The position numbers and the translations under genes were made by a program. The notes under the pieces are model-generated. The model was not told the origin of the DNA, made no database searches, and was given only the letters and a program-made list of their open reading frames with translations. From the NCBI RefSeq assembly GCF_988243305.1, contig NZ_OZ547136.1: 64,000 bases of DNA; one strand, given 5' to 3'. Shown piece by piece: positions 5,069 through 52,197 of the stretch (position 1 is the first letter of the stretch; each line of letters starts with the position of its first letter).

Positions 5069-5156
5069 TGGCGGTGAGGGGGGGATTCGAACCCCCGATA
5101 CGTTGCCGTATACACACTTTCCAGGCGTGCTCCTTCAGCCACTCGGACACCTCACC
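5069..5156 (-). tRNA. serX: tRNA-Ser (GGA), serX
   Basis: Reverse complement reads GGTGAGGTGTCCGAGTGGCTGAAGGAGCACGCCTGGAAAGTGTGTATACGGCAACGTATCGGGGGTTCGAATCCCCCCCTCACCGCCA: 88 nt, long variable arm, CCA end. Confidence 0.95.
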
Positions 5157-10701: not shown

Positions 10702-11455
10702 GATGAAACCCCGCTTTTTTTATTGATCGCACACCTGACAGCTGCCTCTAAAATAGAAGCACCAGAAGTACTGACAGATGTTGCACTGCTGTGTGTAGTA
10801 ATAAATCAGCCCTAAATGGGTAAAATATAAAACTAATGGATTACATGTGATTTCAATCTAGCCATTACAAATCTTAAATCAAGTGTTAAACATGTAACTA
10901 AATGTAACTCGTTATATTAAAATGTTAATCTTAAGGTTTTGTTAAGTTTAGAAATGATAGAAAAGTTGTACATTTGGTTTTTATTGCACAATTTTAAAAA
11001 ATCATACAAATGGTGCTAACTTACTAATAATGCATATAAAAAATATTTCGGTGTAGTCCTTTCGTCATGTAAAACGTTGTTGTTTTTTCTTCACACCTCC
11101 GTGGACAATTTTTTACTGCAAAAAGACGAGGTTTGTCACGGCTTGTGCGCAAGACATATCGCAGCAATCAGCGACGGGCAAGAAGAATGGCTGTCTGGTG
11201 ATTTTTGATTGCGGAAAACGGAGATTTAAAAGAAAACAAAATATTTTTTTGCGTAGATAACAGCGTATTTACGTGGGTTTTAATACTTTGGTATGAACAA
11301 AAAAAGAAAAATACAACGCGCGGGTGAGTTATTAAAAATATTTCCGCAGACATACTTTCCATCGTAACGCAGCGTTAACAAAATACAGGTTGCGTTAACA
11401 ACCAAGTTGAAATGATTTAATTTCTTAAATGTACGACCAGGTCCAGGGTGACAAC
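10702..11455. promoter_or_regulatory. csgD-csgB divergent intergenic control region
   Basis: ~750-bp AT-rich non-coding stretch between divergent csgD and csgB starts; known multi-factor regulatory region. Confidence 0.8.
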
Positions 11456-15288: not shown

Positions 15289-16446
15289 TTAACGGGCTGG
15301 TGCTTTATCGTTCTCACGCTTAACAACCGGTTTACCAGAGAACAAAAACTTCAGTAACGGGATGCGTAAATGAATTTCATACAGAATTATCGCAATCCCT
15401 ACTACGAATATCAGGCCACAGAGAAAACCAAGCCAGTTGGAGGTGATGTGCGGTGTAATGTATGCGCCGAAAAACAGCGTTAACGGATGGTGAACCAGAT
15501 AGATAAACAGCGATGCGTTAACAAAATAAGTCACCCGCGCTGACTGGAAGTTAAGCAAACGGTGGCCAAAGGAGAAGACCACATTCACCATCCACAGACC
15601 GAGGACCATGGTGATCACCGACTCGGTTTCGTACATCCAGGCATCGCCACTGCCATAGCGCTGGTTGAGTAAGTAAGCGACAAATGCCAATGCTGCTGCG
15701 AGGGTACAGCCACGAGACGGCGTGGTAAACAAGGCTTTAAGATGAGGGAAAATGAAAGCCAGTGCGCCGAGGATAAAAAACGGCAAATAAAATAGCGTTT
15801 GCATGACAATAAAATTGAACATGCCGTTACTCAGAATGGGCGGATACACAATAAAAATCGTTCTTCTTATTACCGCATAGCTGATGCCGAGGCACAAAAA
15901 AATCACCGATAGTTTTACCATCGAGAATTTTTTATTCGTTTTATCAGAATTTTCTAAATTATTTCTGATGCGCTTGAATATCCAGACGCACAGCGTCGTC
16001 ATGACCACTAACACCAATAAAAACCACAGGTGCGATATTAATTCCCAGGCCAACGTATTATATTTGTCATACAATGACAGTCCAGGCCAACTTTCCGCTT
16101 TCCCTTTGACGTATTGCAGCATAATAAATTGCGGCAATGTCAGTAGGGGGATGGCTGTTAACATCGGGATCCCTACACGTTCGACACGTACTTTCCACCA
16201 TTTTTTCAAGGGATAGCGTAAAAAAAGCATGTAGGAAAAGTACCCGGATATAACGAAAAATACCTGCATGCGGAACGAGTGGATGAAGTCATTAAAAAGG
16301 GTCAGCCATAATGACGGTTCGGCGCTATTCACATGCCATGTATGGCTCGAATAGATTAAAGAAATATGAAAAGGGATCCCTAACAACATCAGCCAGGCGC
16401 GGATGGAGTCGAGGAAATATTCACGTTGCGCGGGTACTGGATTCAT
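15289..16446 (-). CDS. opgC: OPG succinyltransferase OpgC (acyltransferase-3 family membrane protein)
   Basis: 385-aa polytopic membrane ORF. Confidence 0.92.
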
Positions 16447-16728
16447 ATATGGTTAACTAATCTCGGATTTTTCGTCTTATCCCTGTCGGGTTATGCCTTT
16501 AGGCTTGTTGCCATAGCGACACCGACCTGACCGCGCCAGGCGCAGGCTTCAAGGTTTTTATGCATAGCATCATCGCTACCACTAACCAGAATGGAAGCGT
16601 CTGTAAGACGGTTGATAAATAAATTTGCTGGCAAACCCTACACGAAGTCGATGCTTCTGTCTTTAGGAGAAGCACGGAAAGTGAAAACGGTTGCAATCAG
16701 GTGCTTAATCCATGAGCCAGCGTGCTGA

Positions 16729-20919: not shown

Positions 20920-21015
20920 TTGCCTGATGCGCTACGCTTATCAGGCCTACATCGCTCCTGCAATGTGTTGATTTTGCAAGATTTTGTAGGTCGGATAAGG
21001 CGTTCACGCCACATC
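20920..21015. repeat. REP/BIME palindromic elements
   Basis: GCCTGATGCGCTACGCTTATCAGGCCTAC and GTAGGTCGGATAAGGCGTTCACGCC REP-like units downstream of opgH. Confidence 0.8.
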
Positions 21016-28205: not shown

Positions 28206-28460
28206 TTAATGACGCCGATACTCGTTTACCGGGAAATCACCGGATTCAATTTTGGCGATTCCTGCTTCTAATATCGAAATAAATTGTCTGGCAACATCAG
28301 TGGTTAACCAGAGCGTCTGACCAACTTCAGTCCCTTCCTGCTCGGACTTATTTGGGGTCTGGTAGTGCAAACGCAACATCAGCGCATCATAGCTATCAAC
28401 GGTGCTGATGTCCCACCCTACGAGCGGATGAGTCTGAATGACTTCATTATTTTTTTCCAT
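28206..28460 (-). CDS. bssS: Biofilm regulator BssS
   Basis: 84 aa from MEKNNEVIQTHPLVGW. Confidence 0.9.
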   Translation of the reverse strand: MEKNNEVIQTHPLVGWDISTVDSYDALMLRLHYQTPNKSEQEGTEVGQTLWLTTDVARQFISILEAGIAKIESGDFPVNEYRRH

Positions 28461-28749
28461 CATGGCCCCCTAATTCGTGTTACTAGACAACGTTATTCGA
28501 GGTTCAATGCGTTTTTATCTGAAGCAACTTCAGTATACCAATAAGTAAGGGTATTCACCGAATTTTTAAAGGGGGGAACAGATAAATTTTTGCTTTTAAG
28601 ATTTATATGAACAATAAAACAGCATGTCATTCATATTTTTTTAGCATATTGTGCAATTATTTTGAGGAAGTGTAGAAATTTTGTACTCGAAATTTGTAAG
28701 TAAAATAAAAAAGCCGGGGCGACCCGGCAAAAACAAAAATCACTGCATA

Positions 28750-28995
28750 TTATTCGCTGACAAACCAGTCATCGGCGCTTTCCCACGTTTCCTGGATAAT
28801 TTCGCTAATGCGCTGTTTATCTTCTTTTGTCGCGCCAATAACCGATAAATTATTCGCTGCGGCATAACGTACCGATACGTGGCCTTCATTATCAGGAAAC
28901 GCATACTGAATACGGCGGGAAAGTTCGCCAGCCAGGGCGTCAATAGCCCCAGCTGGCAATGGAGAAGTTTTCGCTATGGTGACTTCAATTCGCAT
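28750..28995 (-). CDS. dinI: DNA damage-inducible protein DinI
   Basis: 81 aa from MRIEVTIAKTSPLPAG; LexA box immediately upstream. Confidence 0.93.
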   Translation of the reverse strand: MRIEVTIAKTSPLPAGAIDALAGELSRRIQYAFPDNEGHVSVRYAAANNLSVIGATKEDKQRISEIIQETWESADDWFVSE

Positions 28996-29014
28996 AATAG
29001 CCCCCTGTTGAATA

Positions 29015-29034
29015 TACTGGTTATTTATACAGGT
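29015..29034 (-). promoter_or_regulatory. LexA (SOS) box of dinI
   Basis: Minus strand reads ACCTGTATAAATAACCAGTA (CTG-N10-CAG) about 20 nt upstream of the dinI start. Confidence 0.8.
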
Positions 29035-29068
29035 AAAATAACCTAATGACAACAGGAAGCTACGATTT

Positions 29069-30115
29069 TTATTGTTTAACGGACCAGCGTACCGTTTCTC
29101 CGGCGAGGAATGGCACCAGCGTGTCATCAGTCAGTGCGATGCTTTCAGCAACCTGTTGCTCTTCACGTACCAGTTCGATGAATGTGTCGTTGACCGGCAA
29201 GCCATAGAACTGCGGGCCGTTTACAGAACAGAATGCTTCAAAGTGCTGCAGAGCATTCATCTCTTCAAAGACGGTAGCGTAACTGCCCAGCGCGGTTGGG
29301 GCATTGAAGCAGCCCGCGCAGCCGCAGCTACTCTCTTTGCGATGACGTGCATGCGGCGCAGAATCCGTACCGAGGAATACGCGATTAAAACCGCTGGCGA
29401 CTAGTTCACGCAATGCCTGTTGGTGAATATTGCGTTTGAGGATGGGTAGACAATACAGATGTGGACGCACGCCACCAACCAGCATATGGTTGCGGTTAAA
29501 CATCAGATGCTGCGGAGTGATGGTGGCAGCCAGCCGTTCATTTCCGTTACGGACATAGTCGGCAGCATCTTTGGTGGTGATGTGCTCAAAAACGACTTTC
29601 AGCGCAGTCAGGCGCTGGCGCAGCGGTTCCATCACGCTTTCAATAAAGCGCGCTTCACGATCAAAAATGTCGATATCTGCATGTGTCACTTCACCATGCA
29701 CCAGTAACGGCATACCGATTTTTTCCATGCGCTCAAGTACCGGCATGATTGCGTCAACTGACGTCACGCCGTGACTGGAGTTAGTGGTTGCGTTTGCCGG
29801 GTAAAGTTTGGCAGCGGTGAACACGCCTTCGTTAAATCCACGCTCAAGCTCATTAGGGTCTAGTGAATCTGTCAAATAACAGGTCATCAGCGGGGTGAAA
29901 TCGTGCCCGGCAGGTACGGCGTCAAGAATACGCTGGCGATAAGCCACGGCAGCCTCAACGGTGGTCACGGGCGGAGCCAGATTGGGCATTACGATAGCCC
30001 GTCCATAAATTTCGCTGGTATACGGCACGACAGTTTTTAACATGTCGCCATCGCGGAGGTGAAGGTGCCAGTCGTCTGGGCGGCGGATCTTTAATACCTG
30101 GGATGGTGCAGTCAT
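29069..30115 (-). CDS. pyrC: Dihydroorotase PyrC
   Basis: 348 aa; N-terminal [10 protein letters not shown] metal-binding motif. Confidence 0.95.
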
Positions 30116-30220
30116 TAATCTCTATGCTCCGGCTGAAGGGATGTTTTTGCCGGACACAAAGGATAAGCGGAAACGTTTTCCTTTGCACGAAAAATAAAGG
30201 GCGCGAATGCGCCCTCGTGA

Positions 30221-51836: not shown

Positions 51837-52197
51837 CGTAACTTACTCATTATTCTTACATTGACGACTAAGCTGCGGGCAAAGTAACGCCTTTCCGGGT
51901 GTGAACCGATGGCCTCGTGTCTAGTCGCGTCGCCAACCTCACGGTTATCGTCAGCTCAAAGAGGCGCAGAGTGTCGGTTGCCCGTTTTTCATGCGGAAAA
52001 ACAGCGCAATTATCAAAGAAACAGACTGGGTATTACTCTCCAGAAATATTTCCATCTACCGGTAAGGACTGCAACCCGCAGCCCGCTAACTGCCTGAAAG
52101 ATCAATACGTCTTACGCCATTGCTGCGTGGATGATCGGTCGGGCAAAATGGGTTATTCCGTAAAATTTCTTGTTTTAACAAGGATGGACACGGAAAC
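51837..52197 (-). promoter_or_regulatory. rne 5' untranslated leader (autoregulatory in K-12)
   Basis: Long non-coding region upstream of rne start, divergent from rluC; extent taken from K-12 knowledge and is approximate. Confidence 0.6.

Follow-up and report, generated by a model that had tools for sequence, protein, structure and literature searches.

The 20-mer ACCTGTATAAATAACCAGTA at 29015–29034 on the minus strand of the analysed DNA (64,000 nucleotides, hereafter the window) is, with a probability of about 97%, the LexA operator of chromosomal dinI; the call is made from the sequence, and the binding of LexA is taken from the literature. The box is identical to the published dinI motif (PMC3009722), scores 21.15 bits with a LexA matrix and is present at all 80 orthologous loci. 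It is a classical SOS operator that was already known, and its confirmation adds nothing new beyond the accuracy of the call. The operator, together with the predicted dinI promoter, is also framed by a long-range inverted repeat; this stem around the promoter is a lead, not a result, and could matter modestly.

The dinI box, its gene and its specificity

On the plus strand, the letters of 29015–29034 are TACTGGTTATTTATACAGGT, the reverse complement of ACCTGTATAAATAACCAGTA. The core of the box consists of CTG (29017–29019) and CAG (29030–29032), separated by the 10-nt spacer GTTATTTATA, which is purely A/T. The gap between the dinI ATG (28995–28993) and the 20-mer is 19 nt (28996–29014), and that to the CTG-N10-CAG core is 21 nt. 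An earlier note on this DNA had reported a CTG-N10-CAG palindrome about 20 nt upstream of the dinI start codon, and both the motif (29017–29032) and the distance proved right. Its description of the box as canonical holds for the core motif only: as a whole, the box departs from the 20-nt consensus TACTGTATATATATACAGTA at five positions, and its palindrome is imperfect, five of ten half-site positions being symmetric. Because of these five mismatches, a search of the whole window for TACTGTATATATATACAGTA with up to three mismatches returned zero sites. At the sequence level, the box nevertheless displays the core, the score and the conservation of an E. coli-type LexA box, and its overlap with the dinI promoter is predicted.

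The gene behind the box (28750–28995, minus strand) encodes an 81-residue protein (MRIEVTIAKT...DDWFVSE) and is annotated as dinI in E. coli genomes. Its product matches the Pfam family DinI (PF06183) with 101.4 bits (cut-off 24.2; E = 3.4e-29), the NCBIfam equivalog for DNA damage-inducible protein I (NF007893) with 176.5 bits (cut-off 111) over residues 1–81 of 81, and the solved DinI structure (PDB 1GHH) over residues 1–81 (E = 2.5e-49). A 125-residue open reading frame at 28750–29127 on the same strand, starting inside the end of pyrC, is an in-frame mechanical upstream extension of dinI and no separate gene. The Shine-Dalgarno sequence of dinI, AGGGGG, lies at 29001–29006 (minus strand), as read from the sequence. 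On the 3' side of the gene, a terminator scan located an intrinsic terminator at 28703–28728 (minus strand), with a GCCGGG/CCCGGC stem (28728–28713) followed by a T-run.

Upstream of dinI on the minus strand lies pyrC (dihydroorotase; 29069–30115), assigned from the open reading frame list and E. coli gene order. By coordinates, its stop codon is 73 nt from the dinI ATG and 34 nt from the LexA box, and the terminator scan found zero intrinsic terminators between the pyrC stop and dinI. Downstream of dinI, bssS occupies 28206–28463 (minus strand), and the best-matching E. coli genome has the same gene order, yceI-yceJ-yceO-solA-bssS-dinI-pyrC-yceB-grxB-mdtH. Six Rfam matches in the window exceed the gathering score: the PyrC leader (30116–30165, minus strand), the rne 5' UTR element (51861–52197, minus strand), the SraB sRNA (54058–54226, plus strand), the ES056 sRNA (10757–10848, minus strand), the ES036 (CssrF) sRNA (20943–20985, minus strand) and tRNA-Ser(GGA) (5069–5156, minus strand). 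This is the set expected for the E. coli serX-csg-opg-dinI-flg-rne region.

The bare CTG-N10-CAG pattern has little specificity: the window contains 30 matches, compared with 14 ± 3.6 in dinucleotide-preserving shuffles. Its count was therefore dropped as a test of significance, and a matrix was used instead. The excess probably stems from how common CTG and CAG are as codons, rather than from LexA, and the match at 29017–29032 is the only one of the 30 with an all-A/T spacer. The matrix, a symmetric position weight matrix (PWM), was built from 17 E. coli LexA motifs, all those listed in Table 4 of PMC3009722 except dinI. With this matrix the dinI box reaches its 21.15 bits and a heterology-index-like value of 6.8, within the 13.7–28.3 bits spanned by the 17 reference sites. 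The runner-up in the window, at 16435–16454, has 11.2 bits, under the weakest reference site. In a null of 200 first-order Markov randomizations of the window, which preserve dinucleotide frequencies, 0 of 12.8 million positions attained at least 21.15 bits, and the maximum was 19.3. The PWM scan that the earlier note had proposed as a test was thus passed clearly (21.15 bits versus 11.2 for the next best site), and its reading of the motif as the SOS box of dinI is borne out by identity to the published motif, by the identity of the gene, by conservation and by published regulation.

Conservation in Escherichia, other enterobacteria and phages

An 86-nt segment spanning the pyrC-dinI intergenic region (28990–29075) has matches in 5424 of 5426 complete E. 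coli genomes; identity is at least 99% in 3739 of these 5424, and 100% among the matches listed. A longer, 501-nt segment (28650–29150) is at most 99.6% identical to any of the 5426 genomes and 95–99% identical to most. The source strain therefore seems to lie slightly off the common lineages, in a less-sampled Escherichia or Shigella lineage. In one complete E. coli ST2747 genome (NZ_CP007394.1, 2946–3037), a clean deletion of ~490 bp, equivalent to approximately 28545–29031 of the window, has removed dinI and most of the LexA box. The bssS upstream region is thereby fused directly to ...GGTAAAATAACC, close behind the 3' end of pyrC, and the annotation of this genome leaves 92 nt between bssS and pyrC.

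Orthologous loci were scanned in one genome per species, giving 80 loci from ~25 enterobacterial genera, among them Escherichia, Citrobacter, Salmonella, Enterobacter, Lelliottia, Kosakonia, Kluyvera, Buttiauxella, Atlantibacter, Cedecea and Trabulsiella. In all 80, pyrC lies upstream of dinI on the same strand and a LexA box is present; in 78 it scores 19.4 bits or more and lies no further than 130 nt from the ATG. In 65 of the 80, exactly 19 nt separate the box from the ATG, and in 76 the distance is 18–21 nt. The two exceptions to the 130-nt range are Buttiauxella gaviniae and B. brennerae, in which the box, GACTGTATAAATATCCAGTA, is found further upstream, ahead of an insertion of ~125 nt. 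This insertion lies between the box and the Shine-Dalgarno sequence, contains a long hairpin of its own and leaves the box and both arms of the surrounding stem in place; it may resemble an enterobacterial repeat of the ERIC/IRU type. In Trabulsiella guamensis and T. odontotermitis, the distance from box to ATG is 60–62 nt because ~45 nt have been inserted after the 3' arm, and the stem around the box is kept.

A MAFFT alignment of 77 intergenic regions shows which elements are invariant or nearly so: the TTG of the putative -35 element, CTGTATAAA, the CAG of the box, and the GGGGG run of the ribosome-binding site. The columns CTGTATA..A belong to this set as well, and the distance from TTG to TATAAA is free of gaps.

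The box also accompanies dinI outside the chromosomal context. The phage set comprised 78 phage-borne DinI paralogs from IMG/VR (~50% protein identity) with 56 distinct upstream sequences. A box was detected in 74 of the 78 (21.5–29.5 bits), ending 14–22 nt before the ATG, with a gap of exactly 19 nt in 49 cases. In control windows of 120 nt from the same phage loci, 0.6% reach 15 bits.

Predicted promoter geometry and a surrounding inverted repeat

Read on the minus strand, the intergenic region runs from the pyrC stop to the dinI start as TAA AAATCGTAGCTTCCTG TTGTCA TTAGGTTATTTTACCTG TATAAA TAACCAGTATATTCAAC AGGGGG CTATT ATG. This arrangement offers a predicted -35 element, TTGTCA (29047–29052, minus strand), 17 nt upstream of a predicted -10 element, TATAAA (29024–29029, minus strand), which lies inside the LexA box. 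From the geometry of the two hexamers, dinI transcription is predicted to start 6–7 nt after the -10 element, at 29017–29018 (minus strand), in the 3' half of the box. The conserved spacing of TTG, 17 nt and TATAAA puts both the -10 element and the predicted start inside the box, which would then span approximately -17 to +4. A generic sigma-70 scan found no minus-strand promoter and missed these elements, because TATAAA lacks the T required by the scan at hexamer position 6; its two plus-strand hits were disregarded as chance level (2 found, 1.3 expected). From the sequence we infer the -35 and -10 elements and the start, and hence repression by a block to RNA polymerase, with the alignment and the transcription start mapped in Klebsiella as support.

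Under this mechanism, a LexA dimer on the two CTG/CAG half-sites would cover the -10 element (29024–29029) and the predicted start (~29017–29018), and bound LexA would shut RNA polymerase out of the dinI promoter. On DNA damage, RecA filaments stimulate the self-cleavage of LexA, which leaves the operator empty and allows dinI to be transcribed; the DinI protein then acts on RecA filaments and so modulates the SOS response.

Two other explanations of the box have to be weighed. It could be a chance CTG-N10-CAG palindrome in AT-rich intergenic DNA with no regulatory role, given that the pattern is common in the window (the 30 matches described above) and that a partly palindromic look is frequent in AT-rich promoter DNA. 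However, the 20-mer stands 10 bits above the rest of the window and above every null position, the box recurs at an equal distance from the ATG in 80 of 80 orthologs and 74 of 78 phage paralogs, and lexA-dependent induction of dinI has been published. We give a chance origin practically no credence, as it is refuted by the matrix score, the orthologs and the phage paralogs, which have no pyrC upstream. That the box begins 34 nt past the pyrC stop, on the same strand and with no terminator detected between them, would instead suit a site that serves mainly as a LexA roadblock to RNA polymerase arriving from pyrC and is no promoter-occluding operator. Against this stand the conserved -35/-10 pair that overlaps the box, and the finding in Klebsiella that ~50 bp upstream of the mapped start are needed for dinI mRNA from a plasmid clone, a promoterless version giving none (PMC10907235). 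Moreover, phage-borne dinI genes in unrelated contexts keep an equal distance between box and ATG, which ties the box to dinI's own promoter. A pure roadblock is therefore very unlikely and was rejected because phage paralogs without pyrC upstream have kept the box, although a roadblock could be a side effect of LexA binding. The reading as a promoter-occluding operator is the one retained here, and none of the results spoke against binding by LexA.

The operator and promoter sit within a 13-nt inverted repeat whose arms are 39 nt apart at the DNA level. Its 5' arm (UAGCUUCCUGUUG in RNA; 29050–29062, minus strand) lies close behind the pyrC stop and shares the TTG with the predicted -35 element, and its 3' arm (CAACAGGGGGCUA in RNA; 28998–29010, minus strand) contains the dinI Shine-Dalgarno sequence. 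The loop of this long-range stem holds the LexA box, the -10 element and the predicted start. An inner 8-bp inverted repeat, GGTTATTT / AAATAACC (29019–29043, minus strand, with arms at 29019–29026 and 29036–29043), has one arm inside the box. For a minus-strand RNA that runs from the pyrC end into dinI, the predicted minimum free energy (MFE) structure has a 14-bp stem (-38 kcal/mol for 126 nt; z = -3.6 versus shuffles). The predicted unpaired probability of the Shine-Dalgarno sequence is 0.001 in this read-through RNA versus 0.34 in a transcript from 29018.

These observations raise a further reading, which would add to the LexA reading and not replace it: the operator and promoter may lie in the loop of a conserved hairpin of pyrC read-through RNA that stops or 3'-stabilizes the pyrC mRNA and/or hides the dinI ribosome-binding site. 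In that case, transcripts initiated inside the loop under LexA control would be the sole source of DinI. We regard this as possible and hold it tentatively, with the odds somewhat against it. It would suit the empty terminator scan between pyrC and dinI, the 13-nt repeat in the DNA, the 14-bp MFE stem with its z-score and the contrast in Shine-Dalgarno accessibility. It is also consistent with the orthologs: almost all of the 79 distinct orthologous intergenic regions form the pairing GCCCCCUGU / ACAGGGGGC in their MFE folds, and 79% of cells in the MAFFT alignment are paired versus 28–56% when the partners are slid by 1–3 columns. The pairing energy is -20.7 kcal/mol when the 5' and 3' flanks come from one species, compared with -19.5 for cross-species combinations and -10.4 for shuffled 3' flanks; 0 of 5000 permutations reached the same-species energy, in a test that ignores phylogenetic relatedness, which weakens its bearing on the hairpin. 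The 5' arm varies chiefly by C-to-U changes, so that G-U pairs are kept in the sense RNA only. One distant relative (locus L130) has the compensated arms GCCUCUG / CGGAGGC followed by UUUUUU, and is the only locus with UUUUUU after the stem. Finally, the stem is absent from phage-borne dinI paralogs, which have no pyrC upstream (-12.9 versus -11.3 kcal/mol when shuffled).

Other results speak against the hairpin. Among the nine core pairs, substitutions hit one partner and never both; two-sided changes occur in three outer pairs alone, and about half of the rows leave these three unpaired. Because the core changes are one-sided, pair counts on the named stem were not accepted as proof of an RNA structure. 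Each arm may be conserved separately: the 5' arm could be maintained for the -35 region, and the 3' arm for the Shine-Dalgarno sequence. The only structure that RNAalifold predicted from the 77-sequence alignment was a trivial one of two pairs, and the long-range stem was missing from it. Set against an intrinsic terminator (a GC-rich hairpin with a short loop and an immediate U-run), the stem does not qualify: it encloses 39 nt, and the tract UAUUAUG that follows is a poor U-run. The Trabulsiella loci keep the stem with the Shine-Dalgarno sequence moved 45 nt downstream, which misfits pure masking of the ribosome-binding site. The open literature searched yielded no description of a pyrC-dinI stem, a pyrC terminator or pyrC-dinI read-through, and the Term-seq and Rend-seq data searched yielded no relevant 3' end or expression data, their one 3' end inside pyrC being unrelated. 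On balance, the specific model in which pyrC read-through RNA with both arms folds and thereby terminates and/or hides the dinI ribosome-binding site, with LexA-controlled transcripts that lack the 5' arm being translated, appears rather doubtful.

Should the stem insulate dinI from pyrC read-through, it would account for two features of the locus: an SOS gene under tight repression and with strong induction lies 73 nt downstream of a housekeeping gene, with zero terminators detected between them, and the pyrC-dinI order is kept in all 80 enterobacterial species representatives.

Comparison with known systems

The closest counterpart is the dinI SOS box of E. coli K-12 (ACCTGTATAAATAACCAGTA). 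The E. coli dinI LexA motif is listed in Table 4 of PMC3009722, and the 20-mer together with its flanking 25-mer, TTACCTGTATAAATAACCAGTATAT, is identical to it; the neighbours pyrC and bssS are shared, and there is no detectable difference at the operator. In E. coli, dinI is induced 49-fold by AZT, with a 39-fold dependence on lexA/LexA cleavage, and its box has a heterology index of 4.8 (PMC11228462), lower values of this index being closer to the LexA consensus.

In Salmonella, the dinI box lies 19 bp from the ATG and has a heterology index of 4.0, and the gene is induced 22.8-fold by nalidixic acid (PMC8072944). The chromosomal gene and the dinI genes of the prophages Gifsy-1, -2 and -3 each have one strong box 19 bp from the ATG (PMC8072944), the same spacing as in the window. 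The Salmonella and phage boxes are closer to the consensus (23–29 bits here; heterology index of ~4–5 in PMC8072944), whereas the E. coli box has 21 bits because of its ACC start and the CC before CAG.

The dinI-DinR locus of Klebsiella pneumoniae (PMC10907235) resembles that of the window in that the box overlaps the dinI start, and it shows LexA binding by ChIP and induction by DNA damage; mitomycin C lowers the LexA occupancy of its promoter, and transcription was mapped to start within the box. Only Klebsiella has an extra stretch before the terminator, which forms the base-pairing part of the DinR sRNA (PMC10907235). In the window, 21 nt separate the dinI stop (28750–28752) from the terminator stem (from 28728), so no counterpart of this stretch is expected. 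A DinR-like sRNA in the 3' end of dinI was accordingly dropped as a candidate, the published pairing stretch being Klebsiella-specific and only ~20 nt being available in the window.

For the inverted repeat, the nearest analogue is fold-back inhibition of the IS10/Tn10 transposase mRNA, in which transcripts entering from outside fold and hide the ribosome-binding site. The likeness would lie in a 5' arm that is present in read-through RNA only and pairs with the Shine-Dalgarno sequence, with transcripts from the gene's own promoter starting downstream of that arm. Unlike in IS10, the upstream transcription would come from the housekeeping gene pyrC, and the loop holds a complete repressor-controlled promoter; the arrangement is known here from sequence and predicted folds. 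If the hairpin acts in this way, DinI synthesis would be strictly SOS-dependent despite constant pyrC transcription 73 nt upstream, and the locus would be a chromosomal counterpart of IS10 fold-back.
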